Below, piece after piece: positions 3,918 to 58,209 of a stretch of DNA of 64,000 nucleotides. The notes beneath the pieces were generated by a model. It was not told the origin of the DNA and ran no database searches. It saw only the letters and a list, made by a program, of their open reading frames with translations. Each line of letters begins with the position of its first letter. Positions within the stretch are counted from its first letter, which is position 1. The stretch lies in contig CM102288.1 of assembly GCA_046563655.1 (NCBI GenBank), forward strand, positions 930,001-994,000, in the 5' to 3' direction. A program made the position numbers and the translations under genes. Source of the DNA: Yuukianura sp. NJ FZ-2021. Lineage: Eukaryota.

Positions 3918-4350
3918 CACAGTGGGGCCGATTGCTTCAAACAACGACAAGCGTTTCGGGGGAAACAAATTGATTGTTAGAAAATACACAATTATGGAGA
4001 CAAAACAGTCGCTAAATTATCGACATAGCAACCGATAGTACAGCGCGATTTCAGTTTTTATGATTGACGAACTGGTTTTCCCCTCATAGACGCAATTTTT
4101 CACCAACTTCAAAAATCAGTTAAAAATACTAAATTAGCAAAGTGGCAAGAAGTGGCACTCGGACTTGGTACGTGATGCTGTCTAGTTTTTATTACGATAT
4201 TCAGGTTATCTGTAGGTAATGGACATTTTTGGACGATTTGATTTTTGTAAATCCTGATTTTGGCATTCATTTTTAATGTAATTTCTAAAAATCAACTTAA
4301 CGTTTCCATTGACAACCGTGGCGCCTGTTTGAAGCAACGGCCCCACTGTG
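3918..4350. mobile_element. Non-autonomous Transib-like DNA element (MITE), 433 bp
   Basis: TIRs CACAGTGGGGCCGATTGCTTCAAACA (from 3918) and TGTTTGAAGCAACGGCCCCACTGTG (ends 4350). Perfect 5-bp TSD TGGGG at 3913-3917 and 4351-4355. CAC termini plus a 5-bp TSD are the Transib signature. No coding capacity. Confidence 0.8.
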
Positions 4351-33430: not shown

Positions 33431-38645
<5,215 letters not shown>

Positions 38646-38986
38646 TTCAACTGATGAGTAAGAAATTTGCAGACAAGGCTAATGTCAATTGGATTTTGAA
38701 CAGAGGAGGTTTGAAAAGTTGGGAATTTGCCGACTGGTTGATTTGTAAACTATGACAGCTGAAGATTGAATCTGAAAAGTAAAACCTTGAACAGGAGCTA
38801 CTGAGGATTTTTAGTTCGATTCATCTTCTAACTCCACTTTGAAGACCTTGGCTATTCATGTCACACTTCATCTGTGTTTCAACAACCTAAACTGTAAATA
38901 GTAATCTATGAGGGGAGAATCGACTCATAAATGCAACTACCGCACAACAACAACATCAGAACACCACAACCTAATGTTGTAGTTTT

Positions 38987-39290
38987 CACACAAGAACAAC
39001 TCTTACACACAAGAACAACTCCCACGCACAAGAACAACTTTTACACACAAGAACAACTTTTGCACATAAGAACTACTTTTACATACAAGAACTACTTTTG
39101 CACACAAGAACAACTTTTGCACACAAGAACTACTTTTACATACAAGAACTACTTTTGCACACAAGAACAACTCTCACGCACAAGAACAACTTTTGCACAC
39201 AAGAACAACTTCTACACACAAGAACAACTTTTGCACACAAGAACAACTTTTGCACACAAGAACATTTACGCACAAGAACTACTTTTACAC
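38987..39290 (+). repeat. 19-bp minisatellite in left TIR (~16 copies)
   Basis: Unit CACACAAGAACAACTTTTG with minor variants. Confidence 0.92.
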
Positions 39291-40013
39291 ACGTCTACTA
39301 CTTTTTCACGCCTACTGCTTTCTGCTTTCGCACACAAGAACAACTCCCTCCGCCTACTATTTTTTTGTCCAACTCATCAAGTGGTATCAGATAGGTTAGG
39401 TCAGAAAACGATAGCCCAGATTTTGAAAACCTTTTGCACATACAAGCCACCCACATCGATGCAGTTTCTCAGAAAATTATAGCTTTGTCAGTGGTCCAGG
39501 TCAAAAGTTATGGTTGTTTCATGTCCAAGAATGTTTGATGTACCAAGGCAAAGTTGGTTTTTCCTTGAATTTAGTCAGCAAATTATAGACTTTTCTTTCT
39601 CATTTAATCGCTCAATTCCTCAGTTCGATTCGTCCAGAGAATAATAATTGCTTTTATTAGCAGCTTTTTCGTTTATAAAAACTGGGACCTGAAGAGCATT
39701 AATGCAAGAATTGAAGTACGTTCGTATTTTAGGAAAAAACATAAACAAAATATTCTACAATTGCCCAAATCCGCTAACACCGTAGTCTAAAATCAATCAA
39801 TCAATCAATCAATTTTTATTTGATTTGGCCTTTTGCCCTATCAATTACAAATCCTGCAGCTCATTTAAGTTAAAAGTAATAAAACAAATTAGCAAAGTCA
39901 AGTAGGTAGAAAAATTAAAATAAGTAAGAAGATGTAAGTAATACGAAGTCAAAAGTAGAATTAGGGGGACTTAATGATGTGTGCAATGGGAGAGAATTAG
40001 AGGTGTCCCGCGG

Positions 40014-43000
40014 TCATCGGTCCAGGGCAGGCTCGAACATTGAGAGTACTTTTTGATTTAAAATTTGGAGGTTCTTGATAAGTGTGATGTCGTTGTAATG
40101 TGAACTGACCCAGACAATTGGGCATTGGGACGGTGGGATGTGCAAATGAATCCGGTGTGTGTTAGTCTGTGGGCAGGTCCATAGAGCGTGGTAGTAAGAC
40201 AGTTGGTCTCCACAGAAACTGCAGAACTTTTCTTTGAACTGGCCGAGATCAAGCCATTTTCGGTTGTGGTAGACCTGGTTCATGTTCAGCCGGATCTGCA
40301 TGACTGTTCTGGTGAGGTAGGCTGGGAACCGTTTTGAAAGTAATTCCTTCGCCGGGAAATCGTTCTCAAGGGTAGAGTAGTGTGGTATGGAACTGGACAG
40401 CAATGCACGACTCTTGTCTGATTCACGGTAGAAGTTCGCAAGGTTCTTGATTATTGTTTTTGTTTTTGCTCTGATGTCATGTAAGTTTCCCCGGTCATAG
40501 GCTCCCTCTTCCCCAATTTGAGTAAGGGCAGCTCTAAGCTGTAGGCACCAACTGTATTTTTGATCAGGGTAGAGTAATGTAACTTTCCTTAGTTGTAGGT
40601 ATGCGTTTTTTGTGAGGTCAGAGCAAGATTTTGTGTGGAATTTTGTGAACAGTTGCCAGGCTCTTTTGATTATTTCGAACTCTAAGGGAGGAGACCCTGT
40701 CTCTAGCCGTATGAAGTACCGGGGAGTAGTGAACGGTAAGTGGAAAACTCGTTTGTAATAGTTTTGTTGAACCGTTTCTACGGTGTCAGAATGTAGTAAA
40801 CCCCAGGTTTCACAATTGTATAAGGTTGTGGATGTTACAAGTGAGTTGAGTAGCATCTTAACCGTCCACAGGTCAATGTAGGCAGATTTCTTGAGTAAAC
40901 CCAAGACTGCTCCTTGTGCTGAAGTTCCTTTATCAACTGCGTTCCTTGCAGCTTTGTGGAATGTGCCGTTAGATTGGAAGATCACACCAAGGTACTTGTA
41001 TTCTGCCACTGTTTCTATCCGTGTTCCATTCCAAAAGAACAGGTCGTCTTTTCGTAATCTTCCCGATCGACGGAAAGGTATTACCTTTGTTTTTGTAAGG
41101 TTGACCTGGAGACCTCTGGCTTTGAAGAAGTTCGAGGCGATTTTGATTTTCTCCTGGAGCAGTTCCTTGGACTGTGCTGTGATTACAAGGTCGTCAGCGT
41201 ATAGCAGAACATGAATAATACGGGAGCCCAGAGTGTAGCCTTTGAGTAGTGAATTGGTGAATCTGCTTACTAGGTCTTCAATGAACAAATTGAAGAGGGT
41301 GGGACTGGCGGATTCACCTTGGAGCACCCCTTTCATTATTTTAATTGGATCGGTGAGTCCTTCGCTGGTGTTAACTTGGGTAGTGGCGTTGTCATAAAGG
41401 GACTTGAATATTTTTAGAAATTTGGTTGAGACACCCATGTTTCCCAGGACCTCCCAGAGTAGAGAGTGGTTTGGAGTGTCAAAAGCCTGTGACAAGTCAA
41501 CGAATGCGACATACAACTCTTTTTGTTTCAACATCTGGCATTGAACCATAGTCGTTAATGTAAATATGTGGTCAGTGCAGGATCTAGATTTTCTGAAGCC
41601 AGCTTGGAAGTCTGAAATTTTGTGGTTGACATTTATCCAGTTGTTGAGTCTTGTGTTCATCACCTTAGTAAACAGCTTTAGAATCGTATTCATCAGCGAA
41701 ATTGGACGGTAATTTTGCGGCTGGTCTTTTGGCCCTTTTTTGTATAATGGGAGTATTCGAGTATTACACCAGTGAGTTGGCAGTATCCCGTTCTGGAGGA
41801 TATTTTGGAAGAGTGTAACCAGGAATATTAGAATGTTCGGGGTGGCCGCTTTCCATAACTCATTCGGGATTCTGTCGGGGCCTGTTGCTTTGCGTGTTTT
41901 CAACGACTTTGTTGCCATCCTTATCTCAATTGCTGTTACGTCACGATCTAGTATTTCATTTTCTACGAATGGTGTATGTAGGATTTGATGATTCGGGACG
42001 TCACGGGCTTTGAAGAGGTCCTGGAAGTGTTGAAACCACGTATCCTTCGGGATTTTGTCTTGTGAAGTTGTTTGGGCTGTAAAGTATTTTACCGCCTTCC
42101 AGAAGTTTGCCGGGTCTTTGGATGAGTGAAGATGCGAGACAAAATTCGACAGGAACAATGATTTCTTGTTAATTAGTTGCTGTTTGTACAGTTTCTGGGC
42201 TTCTATATAGCGTTGTGCACATGCCGCTCTATTCTCTTCGTCGCACCTTCTTAACTTGCGGAGGGCATTGTTTTTCCTCCATTTCAAGGAGTTCAGCTCC
42301 GCGTCGAACCACTTAGGCTTTGGTCTTATTGGTTTTGGCTTTGACTTCGTGTGGTTGCCTGTTACCTTCGCTGTTTCTACGACTGTTTGTTGTAGTTGAA
42401 GGCTAGCTTCGTTTGCATCCTTGATGTCATAATTCAGAGAGGTCTCAAGAAGTTTATAGAAGTCGTATTTTGCCATTTTTTCTGTAGGAATTATTATTTT
42501 CTCTTGGGTCAGGCCACCGTGATTCTGCGGTTGGTTCACCGTTTGTTGAAGGGAGACGAGCAAAGGGAAGTGGTCGGAGTGATGCCAGTCTAGTATTTTC
42601 AAGTCCCTAACGTTGCCTTGCCAGTTCTGGGATGTGAGCACAAGATCTACCACACTGCACCCTGCGTTTGCTGGGTTTACCATGGTTATTTCTCCTTGTT
42701 CATCTCCTGTTATTGCTCCATTACAAATTGTAAGGTTACACTCGGCCGCAACTGATAGCAGGTTTCTCCCATTTCCATTTATGAACTTGTCCTTGCTTTT
42801 TCTTTTGTACAATGGGGTTGTGTTTCTTTCCCCGGTTCTTGAATTTAAGTCTCCCATTAGCAGTATTGGTTTGTTTGTGAATTTTAGAGTTTCAAGTGTA
42901 TCAGTCACTAGTTTTTGGTTGGATTTATCCGGAGGAATGTAGGCGAATAGCAGTAGAAATTGTGATTGATGATTGCGGACGGCTAGTAGTATTGAGTGGT

Positions 43001-43262
43001 CCGTCGTTTCTAGTAAAGTGATTTCTGAGCCTATTGAGCTGTGCCAGCCAAAAATGAAACCCCCATAAGGACGTCCCCTGTCTGGTTTTTTGGCTAGGAT
43101 TTGGTGAACTGTATATTCTTGCTGTAGTCTGAGGTTTTTATAATTTTCCCATTGCATTGATTCTGATAGGCAGAAAAGAGAAGGTTGGAGGCTCAAGAAT
43201 TCGTTCCAGAAAGTCGGTCCTAGGTTATTTACACTTTTTGCATTCAAATAGAAGATTGTCAT
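40014..43262 (-). CDS. LINE ORF2: AP-endonuclease, reverse transcriptase and C-terminal CCHC-like motif (1082 aa)
   Basis: EN motifs LSE, GDLNSR, VDLV and SDH. RT motifs GPDRI, YRPISL, QAGFR, DLSQAFD, GVLQG, YADD and YLG. C-terminal CSFC...H...C. Confidence 0.96.
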   Translation of the reverse strand: MTIFYLNAKSVNNLGPTFWNEFLSLQPSLFCLSESMQWENYKNLRLQQEYTVHQILAKKPDRGRPYGGFIFGWHSSIGSEITLLETTDHSILLAVRNHQSQFLLLFAYIPPDKSNQKLVTDTLETLKFTNKPILLMGDLNSRTGERNTTPLYKRKSKDKFINGNGRNLLSVAAECNLTICNGAITGDEQGEITMVNPANAGCSVVDLVLTSQNWQGNVRDLKILDWHHSDHFPLLVSLQQTVNQPQNHGGLTQEKIIIPTEKMAKYDFYKLLETSLNYDIKDANEASLQLQQTVVETAKVTGNHTKSKPKPIRPKPKWFDAELNSLKWRKNNALRKLRRCDEENRAACAQRYIEAQKLYKQQLINKKSLFLSNFVSHLHSSKDPANFWKAVKYFTAQTTSQDKIPKDTWFQHFQDLFKARDVPNHQILHTPFVENEILDRDVTAIEIRMATKSLKTRKATGPDRIPNELWKAATPNILIFLVTLFQNILQNGILPTHWCNTRILPLYKKGPKDQPQNYRPISLMNTILKLFTKVMNTRLNNWINVNHKISDFQAGFRKSRSCTDHIFTLTTMVQCQMLKQKELYVAFVDLSQAFDTPNHSLLWEVLGNMGVSTKFLKIFKSLYDNATTQVNTSEGLTDPIKIMKGVLQGESASPTLFNLFIEDLVSRFTNSLLKGYTLGSRIIHVLLYADDLVITAQSKELLQEKIKIASNFFKARGLQVNLTKTKVIPFRRSGRLRKDDLFFWNGTRIETVAEYKYLGVIFQSNGTFHKAARNAVDKGTSAQGAVLGLLKKSAYIDLWTVKMLLNSLVTSTTLYNCETWGLLHSDTVETVQQNYYKRVFHLPFTTPRYFIRLETGSPPLEFEIIKRAWQLFTKFHTKSCSDLTKNAYLQLRKVTLLYPDQKYSWCLQLRAALTQIGEEGAYDRGNLHDIRAKTKTIIKNLANFYRESDKSRALLSSSIPHYSTLENDFPAKELLSKRFPAYLTRTVMQIRLNMNQVYHNRKWLDLGQFKEKFCSFCGDQLSYYHALWTCPQTNTHRIHLHIPPSQCPIVWVSSHYNDITLIKNLQILNQKVLSMFEPALDR

Positions 43263-43337
43263 GTTGGTTAAAAATGTTTCGCTGCAGGATCCTGTACTTG
43301 TTTTGTTTAGTAGGCTATTGATAGGGCGGCCGAGTCC

Positions 43338-44096
43338 TCATTTTGGGGCAGGGAATGAGCTTCGAGTGGCCGAAGCAAAGGTTCTGGGAATAGTCGAATT
43401 TGATGTTCCTGGTGCTAGAGTTCGGGATTCATAAGCCCGTTGTCTTAATTCGCGATTTTTTTGTCTTTCAAGTCTGGTTTCCGCAGTAAGGTCTTCGGTA
43501 ATGGAGTAAATGTCTTTGTTTTGTATGAACGTCTTCCGAAGCTGTAGAGCTCGCATGCGTTGGGCAAATGTAGAAATTCGAACTTTAATTGGGCGGGGCT
43601 TATCAGACGACGGGTTCAATTTTCCAATTCTGAATGCATCTTCTACGTTGACCGGAACGTTGTAGTGGTTAAAAAAGTCGTTGGTGATGTTCATCGTGTT
43701 TTCATTAGTAGTTTCCGAAAGTCCGTGGATAAGAATGTTGTTGCGTCTTAATTCGTCAGTGAGACGGGAGTTCATTTTTTTCAGTTGGTCGATTTCTTGT
43801 TGTTGCTGTTCTGTTTTCGTTTGTAGTTCTTCGATTTGTTCTTGGTATTTTTCCAATTTGAGTTCGATGGAGTCGCATCTCGTGTCAATTTTTGCGTCGA
43901 TCTTTTCGGATCTGTCAATCAGTTTTGTAATTGCCGCCATTAGATCTTCATTCGAGACATTTGATCTTTTTGAGTATGGTTCGTTTCCGTTGTTAGGATC
44001 CGATTCGGCAGGTCGTTTGCTTCCTTTGTTTTGTGGGAGGAAAGGTAGGGTGGTTTGCGACATGTTCTGTGACACGGGTGAGCGTGAGATTGGCAT
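43338..44096 (-). CDS. LINE ORF1: coiled coil plus RRM-like (L1 ORF1p-like) nucleic-acid chaperone (252 aa)
   Basis: Heptad coiled coil followed by RRNNILIHGL...RIGK...KPRPIKV...ITEDLT. Lies directly upstream of ORF2. Confidence 0.88.
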   Translation of the reverse strand: MPISRSPVSQNMSQTTLPFLPQNKGSKRPAESDPNNGNEPYSKRSNVSNEDLMAAITKLIDRSEKIDAKIDTRCDSIELKLEKYQEQIEELQTKTEQQQQEIDQLKKMNSRLTDELRRNNILIHGLSETTNENTMNITNDFFNHYNVPVNVEDAFRIGKLNPSSDKPRPIKVRISTFAQRMRALQLRKTFIQNKDIYSITEDLTAETRLERQKNRELRQRAYESRTLAPGTSNSTIPRTFASATRSSFPAPK

Positions 44097-44110
44097 CAGC
44101 TTTTAATTTT

Positions 44111-44574
44111 AGGTTACTCTACTGAGTTACCTCTTAGGTTACCCTACTGGGTTACCTTAGGTTACTCTACTGAGTTACCTTGGACCGTAGGTTACCCTAC
44201 TGGGTTACCTTAGGTTACTCTACTGAGTTACCTTAAACCGTAGGTTACCCTACTGGGTTACCTTAGGTTACTCTACTGAGTTACCTTAGGTTACTCTACT
44301 GAGTTACCTTAAGCCGTAGGTTACCCTACTGGGTTACCTTAGGTTACTCTACTGAGTTACCTTGGGCTGTAGGTTACCCTACTGGGTTACCTTAGGTTAC
44401 TCTACTGAGTTACCTTGGGCCGTAGGTTACCCTACTGGGTTACCTTAGGTTACCCTACTGAGTTACCTTGGGCCGTAGGTTACCCTACTGGGTTACCTTA
44501 GGTTACTCTACTGAGTTACCTTGGGCCGTAGGTTACCCTACTGAGTTACCTTAGGTTACTCTACTGAGTTACCT
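44111..44574 (-). repeat. Array of 18 palindromic 22-bp units in the LINE 5' UTR
   Basis: Plus-strand units AGGTTACTCTACTGAGTTACCT (9), AGGTTACCCTACTGGGTTACCT (7) and hybrid AGGTTACCCTACTGAGTTACCT (2), separated mostly by 1-nt or 8-nt linkers. Confidence 0.95.
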
Positions 44575-46384
44575 TTGACCTTTGAAAAGGTAAACGGCGT
44601 AATCGGTCGAGGAGAAATTGGCGTAGGGATAACGTAATTGATTGAACTTTAATGACTTGGAGTTAAAGATTGGATGCTGTAATTACTGGATGTGTTCTGA
44701 ATAGACGTTGGAGGTTGCTACTAGACGATTACTGTTCGGTTTTAAGTGTAGACGAGCAGTGTGTTGTGGTAGTACTAATTCCTCTTGTTGTGCCTGTGCA
44801 ATGACGAGTCTTGTGCTGATCGACTGTAGCGACTTGATGTGCACTGGAACTGGCAGGGTGTCGTCTCGTGTCACTGGACAATTAAAAGGACTGGAACAGG
44901 ACGGGTGTCGTAAGCCTTTGGTAGATTGTAATGCTCTTGGCCTATGTCAAAGCGTGAGTCCTCTCCTATGTCTCGTTCAGTGCTTGATTAGTTATTGATG
45001 CCTTTGCCGTTTAGTAGTTGATTGTTATTGATTACTGGTAGCTGGTTGTCTGTTAGCCACTGATGATTCGTTTGTCACGAGACACAATAGTATTGCGTTA
45101 CCTTCATTAATGTTAGTACTTGTCCACGAGAACGAATGGTCAGCTGATCGAAAAGTACTAAAAAATCCCACAATTAGCTCCCTGGTACTGCCAAAAGTAG
45201 TATCAGCGTGTGCGGGAAGAGTTGCTCTGTTGAATTCCAGTTGATTCCAGTGACCAAGGTTAGTTAATTGGTGAATAAAAATGATTGATTAGGGAGCCTG
45301 TCTTTTTCGTTCACCAGAAACACCCCTCCTTTTACACCGTAGTCTAAAACAAGCTTCATTTTCGAGTTAAGTTGCTCTGCCGTAAAGAATTTTGGAATGA
45401 CAATCTCACTGAAGCAAGCATGTACCTCGATGTCAGTCGCCTCTTCGCTGATATTCAACTTCAGAACGTCATCTGGAAACCCTCCCCAACCGGTCCATGC
45501 TTTTAACAAATCTCCTAACTTGTCGTCTAAAAACAATCAAAAGCAAATTATAATTTCATAAGTGGTTTAAATGTTACCAGTTAATGGAGTTACTGTTCAG
45601 ATCAAATAAGAAACCGCAAAAACACCTGCACATCGTCATGTTCTTTTTCCCAAAAAGTAGTTTAAGAGTTAATTAATGTCATCTTTCCTTTAAAGCAGAA
45701 ATCGTTCTTACCCAAAGTTAGGATTGTGTCACTTAATCCGAAAGCGGAAAGCGAGGCGAGTCGGATTGAGTTCGGAGCATTTGCTTCGGCACGATCCCCT
45801 AAGGAACAAAACGGTTTCGTCCAGACCCTATCCTGTGCTACTCTACTGCTACGATTTGTTGAACGACCAACGGTTCTTCCTCTCCCAGCTGGTGAAGCGT
45901 ATGGCAGGAAATTTCGCCTTGCCTCCTAGTAAATCCTAGCCGGCGTACTGGGCAACATGACAGGGCGAGAAACAGATAAATTCGAGGGACCTGGGCTATC
46001 AGTTGTCATATTGTCTCTCGCTAATGCTGCCTGAGACGCTGCAAATAACAATCAGTATTAGAACGTAACCATTATAAAACATGAAACTATAACTTAGATT
46101 TCCGGAATAAGTTACCATTATTGTTATTTGAAGATGCAATGGCGTTCCTTATTTCGTCTAAAAGGTTTAAGACACGTTGTCGTGTGACATCCATGTTTAT
46201 ACGAAGGAACTAAGTTACTGGAAACAGGAACAATTTGCGAAGTGCAAATAATAAATATTCAACATCTGAGCACATAACAACCAACAAATTGATATTCCCT
46301 CGCCTGGACCACATGATGAGTTGGACAAAAAAATAGTAGGCGGAGGGAGTTGTTCTTGTGTGTGAAAGCAGAAAGTAGTAGACG

Positions 46385-46620
46385 TGTGCAAAAGTTGTTC
46401 TTGTGTGTAAAAGTTGTTCTTGTGTGCAAAAGTTGTTCTTGTGCGTGAGAGTTGTTCTTGTGTGCAAAAGTTGTTCTTGTGTGCAAAAGTTGTTCTTGTG
46501 TGCAAAAGTTGTTCTTGTGTGCAAAAGTTGTTCTTGTGTGCAAAAGTTGTTCTTGTGTGTAAAAGTTGTTCTTGTGTGCAAAAGTAGTTCTTGTGTGTAA
46601 AAGTTGTTCTTGTGTGAAAA
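46385..46620 (-). repeat. 19-bp minisatellite in right TIR (~12 copies)
   Basis: Reverse complement of the left-TIR unit (AAAAGTTGTTCTTGTGTGC). Confidence 0.92.
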
Positions 46621-47106
46621 CTCAAACATTAGGTTGTGTGTTTTGATGTTGCTGTTGTGCGCGGTGGTTACATTTATGAGTCGATTCTCCCCTCATAGTA
46701 ATCTACTTTGAAGCACTCAATTCAAAAGCAAACAAGAACAAGCTTTTTAGTAAACTACAATGTAGTACACACCTTTTCATGTGGTCAATTCATGCTCAAA
46801 AGTGACACTTAAGGATGTGGTCAACAAAAAAAAAGTTTTACTAAAAACTAGTTTTAAATTATAATTGTATCAACAAAACCCAATTTTTACTTGTGTATTT
46901 GAAACGGATGCGAATTGGAAGTGCAGAAACGTACAATTTAATTCATTTCCATAAATTATTGAAAATTAATTTTATGCAATCCATTTTCAAGTTAGCATAA
47001 AAGTTGGTACAAAACTAAGAGCTTGAAATTCCGCAAAACCCGAACGTTTTCTATAAATTAAATTTGAAGACGAGTAGAGAAACAGCATTTGAAATCAAAA
47101 TTTGCG

Positions 47107-48802: not shown

Positions 48803-51800
48803 TTAGAAATTTTGAATTACGGGCGTGGTGATCCGGGAACGAATTGGTAGAGCAGCATCGTGCCACATCCGATTCCAAGGACGACCAGATACACTACCGT
48901 TACCAATGCAAGGTCGAATACAACAGAAGTTCCTGGCTTCGTTTTGGTATGGCGCGTCATTTTTCGGATTTAGATTCCTTAATACTGAATTTCCCAAACC
49001 TACACTGCAACTTACAATGAAATTTTTGGGTTATAAAATGAGTCCAGGACAGGAGCCACAATTTGGTCATTACTATTTCAAGTGTTTTAATGATAATTTA
49101 AACTTTATCATTTTTCAACGTTATCTTTGTAATAATCTGAGTGCCAATGCAATTAGAACAGATAATTACCAGATTAAAAAGAGCTTAACAAAATGGAAAA
49201 CTTTGCACAAATTGCATGTCAAGGCTATTTCACAATCATGTCAAAAAGGTAGGCAACAAAGCGGTGAAAGTTGTGATAGAATTTCTCAAAATGAAATATT
49301 TGGAATGTTTTAAAAAAAATTAAATTGTGTTAAAAATTTTGCTAAAAAACATGATTTCCCGAGTCAAGAAATCAAATGAGGGAACTTTCTTGAGAATTTT
49401 TTAAATGCATTTAATATATTCTAAGAGCCAATTTTCACACTAATTAACTAAAAATTTGATTTTTTGTAATTTTTTGTGTTAGTAATCCGAAATTCCAGAA
49501 CTTCTTTTTTCCATCCAGATCCCGATTACTTGCATGGGCAAGAGCATTGGCCTCCTGGAAGATAAATTCTATGTCGAAAGTAGTCCTGGGTTGAAGCAGG
49601 ACTTTCTCCACTGAAATTCAAAGTCACTTGTTCAGCCGATGGTTGTCCATTGATGATAACGACATTCGGTTTCTTTAGTTGTTGCTCAGTTGTAGTTGTA
49701 GTAATCTTAGTGAAGATTTGCTTGGTTCCCTGTTGTCCATTAAAGTCAATCACATTTGGATTCTTCGGTTCCTCCTCAACGAAGATCATGTTCGAATCGT
49801 TTGGCTCCTCCTTAGAACTCACCGTTATGTCTCCCAGATTATGCGGCTCTCCATTGATGTAGACGATGTGTTCTTGTTCTGTGGAAGTCGTCGGCACGTC
49901 TTCTTGAATTTGAGGTTGACCATTGATGTAAATGATATGATGGTGTTGGCTTGGTTCTTCGTGGGTAGTCACCGTGGTCACGCGTTCTTCAATTTGAGGC
50001 TTGCCATTAATAAAGACAATCTGGGGCTTCTTTGGTTCCTCTTCCGTGGTAACAGTCGTGATGGTTTCTTCAGTTTGGGGCTGCCCATTGATGTAGCTGA
50101 TGTGGGGCTTGTTTGGTTCTTCTTCAGATGTAACAGTCGTGATGCCTTCTAGAGTCTGAGGTCGGCCGATGATAATGTGTTGGATTGGTTTTTCCTCTTC
50201 AGAAGTAACAGTCGTGATGGTTTCTTCAGTTTGAGGCTGCCCATTGATGTAGATAATGTGGGGCTTGTTTGGTTCCTCTTCAGAAGTAACAGTCGTGATG
50301 CCTTCTAGAGTCTGAGGTCGGCCGATGATAATGTGTTGGATTGGTTTTTCCTCTTCAGAAGTAACAGTCGTGATGGTTTCTTCAGTTTGAGGCTGCCCAT
50401 TGATGTAGATGATGTGGGGCTTGTTTGGTTCCTCTTCAGAAGTAACAGTCGTGATGCCTTCTAGAGTCTGAGGTCGGCCGATGATAATGTGTTGGATTGG
50501 TTTTTCCTCTTCAGAAGTAACAGTCGTGATGGTTTCTTCAGTTTGAGGCTGCCCATTGATGTAGATAATGTGGGGCTTGTTTGGTTCCTCTTCAGAAGTA
50601 ACAGTCGTGATGCCTTCTAGAGTCTGAGGTCGGCCGATGATAATGTGTTGGATTGGTTTTTCCTCTTCAGAAGTAACAGTCGTGATGGTTTCTTCAGTTT
50701 GAGGCTGCCCATTGATGTAGATGATGTGGGGCTTGTTTGGTTCCTCTTCAGAAGTAACAGTCGTGATGCCTTCTAGAGTCTGAGGTCGGCCGATGATAAT
50801 GTGTTGGATTGGTTTTTCCTCTTCATAAGTAACAGTCGTGATGGTTTCTTCAGTTTGAGGCTGCCCATTGATGTAGATAATGTGGGGCTTGTTTGGTTCC
50901 TCTTCAGAAGTAACAGTCGTGATGCCTTCTAGCGTCTGAGGTCGGCCGATGATAATTTGTTGGATTGGTTTTTCCTCTTCAGAAGTAACAGTCGTGATGG
51001 TTTTTTCAGTTTGAGGCTGCCCATTGATGTAGATAATGTGGGGCTTGTTTGGTTCCTCTTCAGAAGTAACAGTCGTGATGCCTTCTAGAGTCTGAGGTCG
51101 GCCGATGATAATGTGTTGGATTGGTTTTTCCTCTTCAGAAGTAACAGTCGTGATGGTTTCTTCAGTTTGAGGCTGCCCATTGATGTAGATAATGTGGGGC
51201 TTGTTTGGTTCCTCTTCAGAAGTAACAGTCGTGATGCCTTCTAGAGTCTGAGGTCGGCCGATGATAATGTGTTGGATTGGTTTTTCCTCTTCAGAAGTAA
51301 CAGTCGTGATGGTTTCTTCAGTTTGAGGCTGCCCATTGATGTAGATGATGTGGGGCTTGTTTGGTTCCTCTTCAGAAGTAACAGTCGTGATGCCTTCTAG
51401 AGTCTGAGGTCGGCCGATGATAATGTGTTGGATTGGTTTTTCCTCTTCAGAAGTAACAGTCGTGATGGTTTCTTCAGTTTGAGGCTGCCCATTGATGTAG
51501 ATGATGTGGGGCTTGTTTGGTTCCTCTTCAGAAGTAACAGTCGTGATGCCTTCTAGAGTCTGAGGTCGGCCGATGATAATGTGTTGGATTGGTTTTTCCT
51601 CTTCAGAAGTAACAGTCGTGATGGTTTCTTCAGTTTGAGGCTGCCCATTGATGTAGATGATGTGGGGCTTGTTTGGTTCCTCTTCAGAAGTAACAGTCGT
51701 GATGCCTTCTAGAGTCTGAGGTCGGCCGATGATAATGTGTTGGATTGGTTTTTCCTCTTCAGAAGTAACAGTCGTGATGGTTTCTTCAGTTTGAGGCTGC

Positions 51801-54800
51801 CCATTGATGTAGATGATGTGGGGCTTGTTTGGTTCCTCTTCAGAAGTAACAGTCGTGATGCCTTCTAGAGTCTGAGGTCGGCCGATGATAATGTGTTGGA
51901 TTGGTTTTTCCTCTTCAGAAGTAACAGTCGTGATGGTTTCTTCAGTTTGAGGCTGCCCATTGATGTAGATAATGTGGGGCTTGTTTGGTTCCTCTTCAGA
52001 AGTAACAGTCGTGATGCCTTCTAGAGTCTGAGGTCGGCCGATGATAATGTGTTGGATTGGTTTTTCCTCTTCAGAAGTAACAGTCGTGATGGTTTCTTCA
52101 GTTTGAGGCTGCCCATTGATGTAGATAATGTGGGGCTTGTTTGGTTCCTCTTCAGAAGTAACAGTCGTGATGCCTTCTAGAGTCTGAGGTCGGCCGATGA
52201 TAATGTGTTGGATTGGTTTTTCCTCTTCAGAAGTAACAGTCGTGATGGTTTCTTCAGTTTGAGGCTGCCCATTGATGTAGATAATGTGGGGCTTGTTTGG
52301 TTCCTCTTCAGAAGTAACAGTCGTGATGCCTTCTAGAGTCTGAGGTCGGCCGATGATAATGTGTTGGATTGGTTTTTCCTCTTCAGAAGTAACAGTCGTG
52401 ATGGTTTCTTCAGTTTGAGGCTGCCCATTGATGTAGATAATGTGGGGCTTGTTTGGTTCCTCTTCAGAAGTAACAGTCGTGATGCCTTCTAGAGTCTGAG
52501 GTCGGCCGATGATAATGTGTTGGATTGGTTTTTCCTCTTCAGAAGTAACAGTCGTGATGGTTTCTTCAGTTTGAGGCTGCCCATTGATGTAGATAATGTG
52601 GGGCTTGTTTGGTTCCTCTTCAGAAGTAACAGTCGTGATGCCTTCTAGAGTCTGAGGTCGGCCGATGATAATGTGTTGGATTGGTTTTTCCTCTTCAGAA
52701 GTAACAGTCGTGATGGTTTCTTCAGTTTGAGGCTGCCCATTGATGTAGATGATGTGGGGCTTGTTTGGTTCCTCTTCAGAAGTAACAGTCGTGATGCCTT
52801 CTAGAGTCTGAGGTCGGCCGATGATAATGTGTTGGATTGGTTTTTCCTCTTCAGAAGTAACAGTCGTGATGGTTTCTTCAGTTTGAGGCTGCCCATTGAT
52901 GTAGATGATGTGGGGCTTGTTTGGTTCCTCTTCAGAAGTAACAGTCGTGATGCCTTCTAGAGTCTGAGGTCGGCCGATGATAATGTGTTGGATTGGTTTT
53001 TCCTCTTCAGAAGTAACAGTCGTGATGGTTTCTTCAGTTTGAGGCTGCCCATTGATGTAGATGATGTGGGGCTTGTTTGGTTCCTCTTCAGAAGTAACAG
53101 TCGTGATGCCTTCTAGCGTCTGAGGTCGGCCGATGATAATGTGTTGGATTGGTTTTTCCTCTTCAGAAGTAACAGTCGTGATGGTTTCTTCAGTTTGAGG
53201 CTGCCCATTGATGTAGATAATGTGGGGCTTGTTTGGTTCCTCTTCAGAAGTAACAGTCGTGATGCCTTCTAGAGTCTGAGGTCGGCCGATGATAATGTGT
53301 TGGATTGGTTTTTCCTCTTCAGAAGTAACAGTCGTGATGGTTTCTTCAGTTTGAGGCTGCCCATTGATGTAGATAATGTGGGGCTTGTTTGGTTCCTCTT
53401 CAGAAGTAACAGTCGTGATGCCTTCTAGAGTCTGAGGTCGGCCGATGATAATGTGTTGGATTGGTTTTTCCTCTTCAGAAGTAACAGTCGTGATGGTTTC
53501 TTCAGTTTGAGGCTGCCCATTGATGTAGATAATGTGGGGCTTGTTTGGTTCCTCTTCAGAAGTAACAGTCGTGATGCCTTCTAGCGTCTGAGGTCGGCCG
53601 ATGATAATGTGTTGGATTGGTTTTTCCTCTTCAGAAGTAACAGTCGTGATGGTTTCTTCAGTTCGAGGCTGCCCATTGATGTAGATAATGTGGGGCTTGT
53701 TTGGTTCCTCTTCAGAAGTAACAGTCGTGATGCCTTCTAGCGTCTGAGGTCGGCCGATGATAATGTGTTGGATTGGTTTTTCCTCTTCAGAAGTAACAGT
53801 CGTGATGGTTTCTTCAGTTTGAGGCTGCCCATTGATGTAGATGATGTGGGGCTTGTTTGGTTCCTCTTCAGAAGTAACAGTCGTGATGCCTTCTAGAGTC
53901 TGAGGTCGGCCGATGATAATGTGTTGGATTGGTTTTTCCTCTTCAGAAGTAACAGTCGTGATGGTTTCTTCAGTTTGAGGCTGCCCATTGATGTAGATAA
54001 TGTGGGGCTTGTTTGGTTCCTCTTCAGAAGTAACAGTCGTGATGCCTTCTAGAGTCTGAGGTCGGCCGATGATAATGTGTTGGATTGGTTTTTCCTCTTC
54101 AGAAGTAACAGTCGTGATGGTTTCTTCAGTTTGAGGCTGCCCATTGATGTAGATAATGTGGGGCTTGTTTGGTTCCTCTTCAGAAGTAACAGTCGTGATG
54201 CCTTCTAGAGTCTGAGGTCGGCCGATGATAATGTGTTGGATTGGTTTTTCCTCTTCAGAAGTAACAGTCGTGATGGTTTCTTCAGTTTGAGGCTGCCCAT
54301 TGATGTAGATAATGTGGGGCTTGTTTGGTTCCTCTTCAGAAGTAACAGTCGTGATGCCTTCTAGAGTCTGAGGTCGGCCGATGATAATGTGTTGGATTGG
54401 TTTTTCCTCTTCAGAAGTAACAGTCGTGATGGTTTCTTCAGTTTGAGGCTGCCCATTGATGTAGATGATGTGGGGCTTGTTTGGTTCCTCTTCAGAAGTA
54501 ACAGTCGTGATGCCTTCTAGAGTCTGAGGTCGGCCGATGATAATGTGTTGGATTGGTTTTTCCTCTTCAGAAGTAACAGTCGTGATGGTTTCTTCAGTTT
54601 GAGGCTGCCCATTGATGTAGATGATGTGGGGCTTGTTTGGTTCCTCTTCAGAAGTAACAGTCGTGATGCCTTCTAGAGTCTGAGGTCGGCCGATGATAAT
54701 GTGTTGGATTGGTTTTTCCTCTTCAGAAGTAACAGTCGTGATGGTTTCTTCAGTTTGAGGCTGCCCATTGATGTAGATGATGTGGGGCTTGTTTGGTTCC

Positions 54801-57800
54801 TCTTCAGAAGTAACAGTCGTGATGCCTTCTAGAGTCTGAGGTCGGCCGATGATAATGTGTTGGATTGGTTTTTCCTCTTCAGAAGTAACAGTCGTGATGG
54901 TTTCTTCAGTTTGAGGCTGCCCATTGATGTAGATGATGTGGGGCTTGTTTGGTTCCTCTTCAGAAGTAACAGTCGTGATGCCTTCTAGCGTCTGAGGTCG
55001 GCCGATGATAATGTGTTGGATTGGTTTTTCCTCTTCAGAAGTAACAGTCGTGATGGTTTCTTCAGTTTGAGGCTGCCCATTGATGTAGATAATGTGGGGC
55101 TTGTTTGGTTCCTCTTCAGAAGTAACAGTCGTGATGCCTTCTAGAGTCTGAGGTCGGCCGATGATAATGTGTTGGATTGGTTTTTCCTCTTCAGAAGTAA
55201 CAGTCGTGATGGTTTCTTCAGTTTGAGGCTGCCCATTGATGTAGATAATGTGGGGCTTGTTTGGTTCCTCTTCAGAAGTAACAGTCGTGATGCCTTCTAG
55301 AGTCTGAGGTCGGCCGATGATAATGTGTTGGATTGGTTTTTCCTCTTCAGAAGTAACAGTCGTGATGGTTTCTTCAGTTTGAGGCTGCCCATTGATGTAG
55401 ATGATGTGGGGCTTGTTTGGTTCCTCTTCAGAAGTAACAGTCGTGATGCCTTCTAGAGTCTGAGGTCGGCCGATGATAATGTGTTGGATTGGTTTTTCCT
55501 CTTCAGAAGTAACAGTCGTGATGGTTTCTTCAGTTTGAGGCTGCCCATTGATGTAGATAATGTGGGGCTTGTTTGGTTCCTCTTCAGAAGTAACAGTCGT
55601 GATGCCTTCTAGCGTCTGAGGTCGGCCGATGATAATGTGTTGGATTGGTTTTTCCTCTTCAGAAGTAACAGTCGTGATGGTTTCTTCAGTTTGAGGCTGC
55701 CCATTGATGTAGATAATGTGGGGCTTGTTTGGTTCCTCTTCAGAAGTAACAGTCGTGATGCCTTCTAGCGTCTGAGGTCGGCCGATGATAATGTGTTGGA
55801 TTGGTTTTTCCTCTTCAGAAGTAACAGTCGTGATGGTTTCTTCAGTTTGAGGCTGCCCATTGATGTAGATAATGTGGGGCTTGTTTGGTTCCTCTTCAGA
55901 AGTAACAGTCGTGATGCCTTCTAGAGTCTGAGGTCGGCCGATGATAATGTGTTGGATTGGTTTTTCCTCTTCAGAAGTAACAGTCGTGATGGTTTCTTCA
56001 AGTTGAGGTTGTCCGTTTATAAGAACAATGTGAGGTCTGATCGACTCTTCTTTTGTTGTAATTTTCGTAATTCCTTCTACAATTTGAGGTTGCCCGTTTA
56101 TGTAGACAACGCGACGCTGGCTTGGCCTTTTCTCAGTAGTCACTGTTGTAATGCCTTGTTCAAATTGTGGTTCTCCGTTTATGTAGACAATGTGAGGCTT
56201 GTTAGGTCTTTCTTCAGTGGTGATTGTTGTCTGGCCTGGGTGGAAGTGAGGTTCCCCAGTGATGACGACATGGTGATGCTGGTTTGGGCTTTTGTCAGTG
56301 GTAACCACTGTTGTTCCTAGCTCATTTGTTGGTTGCTCATCATCTTCGCGATGTATTTTGTATTCGGGAGTGTGTGGCAGTGCATTTCCTTCATGGATAT
56401 GCGTCGTTACAACGTTGGCTTCATTGATTGATGTTGGGACATTGTTGACGTGAATTTGTGTGATTCCTGGCTGCTCAACCTTTTGATTTTTCAGAATAAC
56501 GTAGCTTGTTTCCTGTTTGTTGTGTTGCGGAATCGGAATGAAGCCGTGGTGGTGGGTTGTTTGATCTTCCTTAATTACTTTTGGAATATATTCGAAGTCG
56601 ATATGATCGCTTCCAGGTTGCTCAACAACGGATGCTTCATTCGTAACTGTGAAAGTGTCTTCTTGATTTTGAATGCCGAAAGTGGAACTTTGTTGATTTC
56701 CACCACGAATTATGAAATCGTTGAGATTGATGTGTCCACTTTCTGCGTCCGGAATATTCGTCCCGCCAGTGATGATTTTGTAAGATGGTTGTGAAATCGT
56801 TTGTTTGTGTACAGTTATACGGTGACTTCCGTGCATCTTGTCGGCCTTTGTTTCATCGTGCCCGCCAATCTTGATTTTGCTGCCACCAAAGGTGCCGTAG
56901 ACAATTTCGTGCGATTCTCCATGTTCATGGAAATTCTTGGGTCCGGTAATGATCGTCTTAACATGCGTTCCGACGAGGTGAGGACCTTCGTTCCCGCCTA
57001 CCTTGATTTCTTCGCTGCTACCAAAAGTACCGTGGCCAGTTTCGTGCGATACGTCATGTCCACCGAAGTTCTTGCGTTCGGTTATGATCGTCTCAGCATC
57101 ATTCCCGCCAATTTTAATTTCGCTGCTACCAACTGTACCGTGGTCAGTTTCGTGCGATCCGTCATGTACACGGAAAATCTTGGGTTTGGTAATGATCGTC
57201 TCAATATGCGTTTCGTGACTGTGATGACCTTCTTCTCCGCCAACCTTGATTTCGCTGCTACCAAAAGCACCAGCTTCATGCGATCCGTCACGTCCCTGGA
57301 AATTCTTGTGTCCGGAAATGATCTGAATATGCCTTCTGCTGCCCTGAAGACCGTCGTTTCCGCCAATTTTAATTTCGCTGCTACCAAAAGCACCGTGACC
57401 AGCTTCATGTGATCCGTCATGTCCATGGAAATTCTTGGGTGCGGTTCCGGTTATGATCGTCTTAACATGCGTTCCGCCGCGGTGAAGACCTTCGTTTCCG
57501 CCAATCTTGATTTCTTCGCTGCTACCACCAGTACCGTGGACCGTTTCGTGCGACCCACCATTCTCATGGTGGTTCTTGCGCCCGGTAATGATCGTTTCAA
57601 CATGCTTTCCGCCAATCTTGATTTCACCGCTACCGTGGCCAGTTTCGTGCGAGCCGTCATGTCCACGGCTACTCTTTTGTCCGGTAATGATCGTTTCAAA
57701 ATCGTTTCCGCCAATCTTGATTTCGTGGCTACCAAAACCACCGTGACCAGCTTCATGCGAGTCGTCATGTACACGGAAGTTCTTGGGTTTGGTAATGATC

Positions 57801-58209
57801 GTCTCAACATGTTTTCCGCCGCGGTGGAAATCTTCGTTTCCCCCAATCTTGATTTCACTGCTACCAAAAGCGCCTGTGCCAGCTTCGTGCGAATGTTCAC
57901 CAGGTCGCTGGTGTTTTGTTTTACTTGCACTGCCAAGTTCGTGCCGTCCTGCGTGATTCTGTTTTTCAAAAAAAAAATTGGTAAAGAAAAGCTGTAGTAT
58001 ATTGGTGTTAAAATGTAGTAAAAACAAATGCTGTTGTTGTAGATAAGTCGTAAGCACATTTAAGCAGTCGAATGTCTTTTAAAAATTTCCTCTGCATTTT
58101 TCATATTTGAAACAACCCAGATTAATTTATCTCGCGGCTTTGATTTGTTACTTACAGGCATCACGAGCAGGAGTAAAAGCAGGGCCAAGGGCCCATTCAG
58201 TACCGACAT
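48803..58209 (-). CDS. Giant (~2,890 aa) secreted repetitive protein: signal peptide, His/Gly-rich repeats, ~38 x 52-aa Thr/Glu/Ile-rich repeats, short Cys-rich tail
   Basis: Exon 1 58209-58156 (MSVLNGPLALLLLLLVMP, gtaag donor) joins in phase 0 to an 8.4-kb open exon from 57958. A probable phase-2 splice 49530 to 49004 adds a CCIRPC-containing exon ending at 48803; otherwise the stop is at 49526. Confidence 0.8.
50051..56000 (-). repeat. Coding tandem array, 156-bp unit, ~38 near-identical copies
   Basis: Exact 156-bp periodicity; unit encodes KPIQHIIIGRPQTLEGITTVTSEEE + PNKPHIIYINGQPQTEETITTVTSEEE. Confidence 0.97.

Follow-up and report, generated by a model that had tools for sequence, protein, structure and literature searches.

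The question raised by this locus is whether a piece of a HECT-type E3 ubiquitin ligase gene, enclosed by the ends of a DNA transposon, was taken from the host as a passenger or belongs to the transposon lineage, and what such a ligase would do for the element. The locus lies in a window of 64,000 nucleotides (the whole stretch of DNA that was analysed), in which positions 38907-46697 constitute a non-autonomous DNA transposon of the IS3EU/GingerRoot type, with the following terminal features:

38901..38906, no strand: left copy of the 6-bp target site duplication (TSD), GTAATC
about 38907..39385, plus strand: left terminal inverted repeat (TIR), ~480 bp, starting TATGAGGGGAG
38983-39292: 19-bp minisatellite in the left TIR, 16.5 copies
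39405..39512, no strand: non-coding segment of ~110 bp, 72% identical to a segment of intact elements
about 46308..46697, minus strand: right TIR, ~390 bp
46384-46620: 19-bp minisatellite in the right TIR, 12.5 copies
46698..46703, no strand: right copy of the 6-bp TSD, GTAATC

A preliminary description, made from the sequence of the window, had reported TIRs of 390-480 bp with internal 19-bp minisatellites enclosing a gene remnant; these were confirmed and their coordinates measured. Copies of the window ends were sought genome-wide by exact match to 24 bases of the end, which gave 11 places, corresponding to five paired elements and one orphan end (no partner end was found in 18 kb upstream of the latter). 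A looser end pattern occurred at 54 places in the genome, and a control pattern at none. TAT...ATA termini and a 6-bp TSD (GTAATC, AATATA, CTTCTG, CAAACG and CAAAAG) were present in all five paired copies, window copy included, in agreement with the IS3EU reading that had been put forward. Of the other duplication lengths considered at that stage, the 4- and 10-bp readings fitted the window copy only, and are accidents of the window site, and the 8-bp reading fitted the window copy and one sister copy (L013) only. Long TIRs holding minisatellites and a 10-bp duplication readable at the window site alone would be expected of a Mutator/Foldback-like element with a 9-10-bp TSD, but the other four paired copies give no 10-bp duplication; membership of Mutator/Foldback, the probability of which we regard as negligible, and of Pack-MULE was rejected, the TSD being 6 bp, not 9-10 bp, in 5/5 copies. 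Elsewhere in the window, a 6-phosphofructo-2-kinase/fructose-2,6-bisphosphatase gene (Pfam) was recognised on the minus strand at 34000-36500 (the element lies upstream of the exons detected for it, at a distance of some 2.4 kb or more), and a 2850-codon open frame rich in Thr, Glu, Pro and Ile, containing 38 copies of a 156-bp repeat at 99% identity, was found on the minus strand at 49526-58078.

The gene remnant between the TIRs was resolved as follows, in the direction of its transcription:

46116..46194, minus strand: HECT exon 1 (ATG at 46194), matching the intact HECT gene
45712..46038, minus strand: HECT exon 2, start of the ubiquitin-like domain
45928-45926, minus strand: premature in-frame TAG in exon 2, codon 64
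45591..45657, no strand: 67-bp end of an unrelated TA-flanked MITE family (about 90% identity), at the deletion junction
45350..45526, minus strand: HECT last exon (C-lobe), from profile and ESM Atlas matches
45416-45414, minus strand: Cys at the catalytic position of the last exon
39755..39776, minus strand: final HECT codons and stop, severed by a LINE and holding the Phe at -4

Exons 1, 2 and last carry GT-AG sites and would join in frame, because both introns are of phase 1 in the intact gene. The exon-2 donor has an identical place and phase in the remnant and in the HECT gene of intact elements found elsewhere in the genome (see below), and both parts of the remnant (5' exons and last exon) match that gene, which bears out the claim that the TIRs enclose the 5' exons and last exon of one gene. 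The remnant covers just the first third of the ubiquitin-like domain. That the middle of the gene and any transposase are missing was likewise corroborated, in that the middle exons are lost and tblastn found no transposase remains in the window element. The exon-2 TAG and the MITE end at the deletion junction are additions to the preliminary description; the MITE family in question is roughly 410 bp long, TA-flanked, nearly palindromic and present in many copies (L024-L030), and its end at the junction may have triggered the deletion.

Assignment of the reconstructed last exon to the HECT C-lobe, also proposed earlier, held. A profile of 23 fish relatives scored 21.3 bits on it (E 3.6e-6; best score among shuffled controls 2.5 bits, n=1000, 500 per part), the ESM Atlas returned HECT clusters at 0.95 (recognition 2108, below the bar of 2300), and a profile including the window exon matched the UBR5 C-lobe (E 1.1e-8), the catalytic Cys being invariant in 16/16 alignment rows and aligned to the UBR5 Cys motif. 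Pfam HECT gave E 0.027 and 14.6 bits on the split exon, below its cut-off of 23.9, which was not reached by any single exon tested from the window or the intact elements (weak or blank). The E2-binding N-lobe is deleted in the window copy and L013 and present in the intact sisters. HECT ligases have a C-terminal Phe at -4, which was cut off by the LINE in the window copy and kept in L013 and the intact sisters. The window copy yields no working ligase.

The LINE that splits the last exon comprises:

45334..45349, no strand: 16-bp LINE TSD copy, coding in the HECT last exon
39793..45333, minus strand: full-length LINE
44110-44575: 53-bp tandem array in the LINE 5' region
43341-44096, minus strand: LINE ORF1, open
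40014-43259, minus strand: LINE ORF2, open, AP endonuclease and reverse transcriptase (RT)
39777..39792, no strand: 16-bp LINE TSD copy

The two TSD copies match perfectly, Pfam recognised the RT (E 4e-38) and endonuclease (E 2e-9) domains in ORF2, and the 3' tail is a tetranucleotide repeat. Relatives were found elsewhere in the genome (19/19 candidates matched, best 97%), at least 10 of them at 89-97% identity. The LINE is young, and its tail and ORF layout suggest that it may belong to the CR1/L2 group. Excision of the LINE and one TSD copy by script restored the C-terminal peptide, as had been stated, and the LINE-free L013 has the same peptide uninterrupted.

L013 is 98% identical to the window copy and shares its exon-2 stop, middle deletion and 67-bp MITE end at the junction, has a further stop of its own, and lies in a different 6-bp TSD. 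The gene died before LINE entry, as the stop and the deletion are common to the LINE-free copy, and a transposase acted in trans, since two 98%-identical deleted copies share lesions and differ in TSD. Between them, nine non-synonymous or stop changes and three synonymous changes were counted (dN/dS 0.9), and the remnant drifts neutrally. Its in-frame join over 206 codons, with GT-AG sites in both copies, could be taken to mean that the remnant has been retained for a small spliced protein (a portion of the ubiquitin-like domain plus the HECT C-lobe) or for a regulatory RNA, but the common stop at codon 64, the second stop in L013, the neutral dN/dS, the loss of the N-lobe and the removal of the C-terminal Phe motif by the LINE in the window copy make this very improbable. 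In the history that we propose, a parent with a transposase and a convergent HECT gene would have been reduced by deletion of its transposase and of the central part of its HECT gene, and would have picked up the exon-2 stop; the deleted form jumped at least once on a borrowed transposase, and the LINE entered last, in the window copy only. A parent with the exact window ends and a transposase was not found in the assembly (11 exact ends), and the layout ascribed to it is that suggested by sister families. Further copies pairing these TIRs with the HECT gene, the lack of which would have spoken against the preliminary description, were found (L013, and L014 and L015, which have the window ends and hold other scraps of the gene). 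L013 also contains a 400-bp MITE with an 8-bp TSD inside its left TIR (about 540-940) and an insertion of ~1.1 kb without TSD but with a terminal hairpin (about 1750-2825), presumably Helitron-like; this extra 1.1 kb was considered as transposase remains and rejected (no match).

Protein search with the window last exon found two intact elements in this genome (C4:7901407-7909887 and C14:125373-133939), with 44% identity in that exon. They are 8.5 kb each, 96.6% alike, and have TATGGGGGGAG ends, again of the TAT...ATA form, and their own 6-bp TSD (2/2). Each carries three open genes with GT-AG introns, for a transposase, a convergent HECT protein and a RING protein. The transposase, of 461 aa and encoded with 4 introns, is of the DD34E integrase-core type (D209-D266-E301) and gave a PF24764 match at E 8e-32 with a single exon; the HECT gene has 7 exons (656 and 652 aa, respectively; catalytic-position residue Cys623), and the RING protein (338 aa; 3 introns) combines zinc-knuckle, coiled-coil and C3HC4 (E 2.8e-7). 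Between the two copies dN/dS was 0.13 for the transposase, 0.32 for HECT (p 1e-4) and 0.27 for RING (p 0.07), and all three genes are under constraint. The Pfam check for a transposase, suggested in the preliminary description and run here on the intact sister-family elements, thus placed an integrase-like DDE domain beside the HECT gene, and the reading of the window element as a deletion derivative of an IS3EU-type element encoding its own HECT ligase is supported by these transposase-bearing sisters with the whole gene. The HECT gene begins just inside one TIR in the intact elements and the window copy alike. The ends differ, and DNA alignment with the window element is limited to the 110-bp segment (72%); the intact elements are best regarded as a sister family, not the direct parent. 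The family search for the transposase gave 5 matches among 16 candidates, a lower bound, and a word-indexed protein search with one HECT exon of an intact element gave none (0/2480 candidates).

In the intact elements the 110-bp segment occurs twice, in the divergent promoter region that separates the RING gene from the transposase gene (L021 about 3950-4310), and it was retained in 5/5 paired copies with window ends. Its candidacy as a cis requirement of all these elements was rejected, as it was absent from 7/7 other non-autonomous copies and from 26 metagenome loci. Up to 290 bp of the same promoter region is present in L012, L014 and L015, 89-95% identical although their TIRs differ, and families may thus have exchanged sequence. 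In one intact element (L021 1408-9888) about 17 perfect palindromes centred on GCGC were counted, 10-18 bp in length and in many cases intronic; these were not seen in the remnant, which has 9 palindromes of at least 8 bp vs 6.6 expected.

Other loci of this genome were also noted. At L031/L032 (C4:11551200-11560500), dispersed and degraded fragments of this type of HECT gene (45% identity) are accompanied by a nested mariner-like element and a zinc-knuckle ORF, and probably represent a further dead family. L065/L066 (C8:10724521-10739821) is an element of 15.3 kb that has the ends of the sister family and is flanked by an exact 6-bp TSD, and in which no matches to the transposase, HECT or RING proteins were found. 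In the IS3EU-like element L067 (C5:6548000-6557900), exons that we assume to be alpha-kinase-like (Pfam was blank on one exon tried) and a histone H3 tail-like ORF replace HECT.

Outside this genome, 26 metagenome loci from four assemblies (20 of them from one) were found with the transposase exon as query. An element-type HECT gene adjoins the transposase in 14/26, convergently in 11 and in tandem upstream in 3, and the HECT-bearing loci come from all four assemblies; a RING gene was present at 3/26. HECT was not seen at the remaining 12; in 8 of these no more than 0.6 kb of sequence follows the transposase match, and four (L042, L055, L057 and L058) have 0.97-9 kb of downstream sequence without HECT. 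At L050, transposase and HECT both lie within TATGG...CCATA TIRs, with no matching TSD. An exon-level protein search gave 32 relatives, one clustering with a Folsomia candida HECT protein (Pfam was blank on the F. candida relative P0034). From a second search came 111 proteins, of which those with names are fish proteins, many called G2E3-like. The HECT protein of the intact elements matches fish proteins in both its N-terminal and HECT parts, and one fish gene model fuses a transposase (40% to that of the intact elements) with an element-type HECT. The structure model of a fish relative, P0041 (pLDDT 74.8), matched HECT structures (UBR5: Z 22.0, rmsd 4.1, 356 aligned), and its residues 85-200 showed a ubiquitin-like fold with a middling match to the TBK1 ULD (Z 7.5, rmsd 2.7, 81 aligned), rows 20-50 of the matches being mostly of that fold. 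The element HECT is accordingly modelled, from this fish relative, as a ubiquitin-like domain followed by HECT. Three cyprinid gene models (P0097, P0102 and P0116) join a TRIM-type RING/B-box to the element-type HECT family, possibly by domestication or by annotation fusion.

With these relatives in hand, the origin of the ligase gene can be considered. GingerRoot elements are known to pick up host fragments that contain introns, at 79-98% identity to the parent genes (22/77; PMC6839031), and this precedent would favour the suggestion that the HECT fragments of the element came from a host gene (G2E3, for instance) by Pack-type capture as a passenger. The genome protein search with the last exon, however, returned the sister copy and the two intact elements only (4/4 candidates), the DNA search finds no parent gene, and none of 16 host HECT loci scores above 33 bits with the last exon, for which element-linked HECTs reach up to 68 bits. 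The tree comprised 40 sequences (14/16 host loci and 12/14 HECT-bearing metagenome loci, omitted ones being too short) and was built from 71 remnant residues and machine-chained host domains, with SH-like supports, a midpoint root and no true G2E3. It unites the window exon, three metagenome loci and the intact elements in one group (0.977), and separates the 14 host HECTs from every element-type and fish sequence (0.98, 0.995), the two sets forming clades of their own. G2E3 carries N-terminal PHD/RING fingers before HECT; no finger family was found on the HECT-gene exons, and the N-terminal domain of the fish relative is ubiquitin-like. As there is no host parent, the TSDs are of 6 bp and the whole gene sits in intact transposase-bearing elements, the capture option of the preliminary description was rejected for a recent event and is given only a slight probability. 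The intact sister elements show the ligase to be the transposon's own gene, not recently taken from the host; at its root the lineage may have captured it in the distant past. With high confidence, then, the window copy is a dead non-autonomous element from an IS3EU/GingerRoot lineage in which a gene for a ubiquitin-like-domain plus HECT E3 ligase is the standard companion.

In intact elements the ligase would act in trans, ubiquitinating a host protein that restrains the element, and we give such counter-silencing, directed at a host restraining factor, about an even chance. It is favoured because the slot opposite the transposase holds alpha-kinase or TET in fungal IS3EU elements (PMC12730594) and an alpha-kinase-like gene in L067; this accessory slot looks swappable rather than a core step. 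The ligase might instead serve transposition, by limiting transposase levels or by stripping the transposase from DNA after integration, and both the tail-to-tail pairing with the transposase, stable in 11/26 loci, and the ubiquitin-like domain (TBK1 ULD match) would suit such a role. A domain of this kind could dock on the proteasome or on p97 factors. Protein-degradation control has moreover been proposed for a diatom MULE with an E3 (10.1101/2023.01.02.522487). The ubiquitin-like fold by itself, however, shows no function, and since other IS3EU lineages (L067 in this genome) carry alpha-kinase or TET instead, HECT is not an obligatory step; we regard a role in transposition as the main alternative, less likely than counter-silencing. 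Returning to counter-silencing, we tentatively suggest, at somewhat less than even probability for the whole, that an IS3EU lineage widespread among animals makes a ubiquitin-like plus HECT ligase of its own, in many cases alongside a RING partner, and uses it to destroy a factor by which the host silences or restricts the element. On this suggestion the genes of the transposon and their decayed remains, window copy included, would account for many of the 'G2E3-like' genes annotated in multiple copies in fish and invertebrates, and possibly also for reported expansions of G2E3.

The marks of IS3EU/GingerRoot are TA..TA ends and usually a 6-bp TSD (PMC10045372), and 45 Repbase families, 17 of them autonomous, have been described (PMC10045372; PMC6839031). 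The elements studied here are alike in ends, TSD, TIRs and, in the intact sisters, an integrase-like DDE transposase, and non-autonomous families are known in that group as well (PMC10045372; PMC6839031). GingerRoot TIRs are 100-150 bp long (PMC10045372; PMC6839031), whereas those of the window element are 390-480 bp with minisatellites, and the window copy, unlike autonomous IS3EU/GingerRoot elements, is without transposase. The main text of neither PMC10045372 nor PMC6839031 contains 'HECT' or 'ubiquitin'. The TET+ IS3EU families of rust fungi share TAYGG..CCRTA-like ends, a 6-bp TSD and an accessory enzyme gene opposite to the transposase, but their accessory genes are alpha-kinase and TET/JBP, for which escape from silencing has been proposed, and not HECT (PMC12730594; 'HECT' and 'ubiquitin' occur 0 times in its text and one supplementary file). 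No report of HECT in IS3EU was found in the literature searched; Repbase entries may already mention a HECT gene. The diatom MULE, a DNA transposon with a transposase and a putative, UBR-type E3 ligase, is a precedent for the general idea, but belongs to another superfamily with a 9-bp TSD, encodes another ligase class and is diatom-specific, whereas HECT occurs here across several animal groups (10.1101/2023.01.02.522487).

The element ligase resembles HECT E3s in its C-lobe with invariant Cys and terminal GFG, and in profile and fold matches to UBR5, E6AP and Rsp5; the window copy, without N-lobe, is unlike a working HECT E3. The window copy is a fossil, and the interest lies in the intact lineage rather than in the window locus; with it, however, the number of HECT-bearing IS3EU families in this one genome rises to a second. 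The intact sisters offer a compact system for finding the ligase substrate and, if counter-silencing is true, an animal DNA transposon would be using virus-like targeted ubiquitination. Decayed families leave scraps that gene annotation could mistake for host ligases. G2E3 has N-terminal PHD/RING fingers, whereas the element HECT has a ubiquitin-like fold and is transposon-borne, and the multicopy 'G2E3-like' genes of fish are matched by the intact gene in both domains. Claims that G2E3 has expanded adaptively, as for the 20 copies of a hadal sea cucumber (PMC9700323), can be checked against the lineage.
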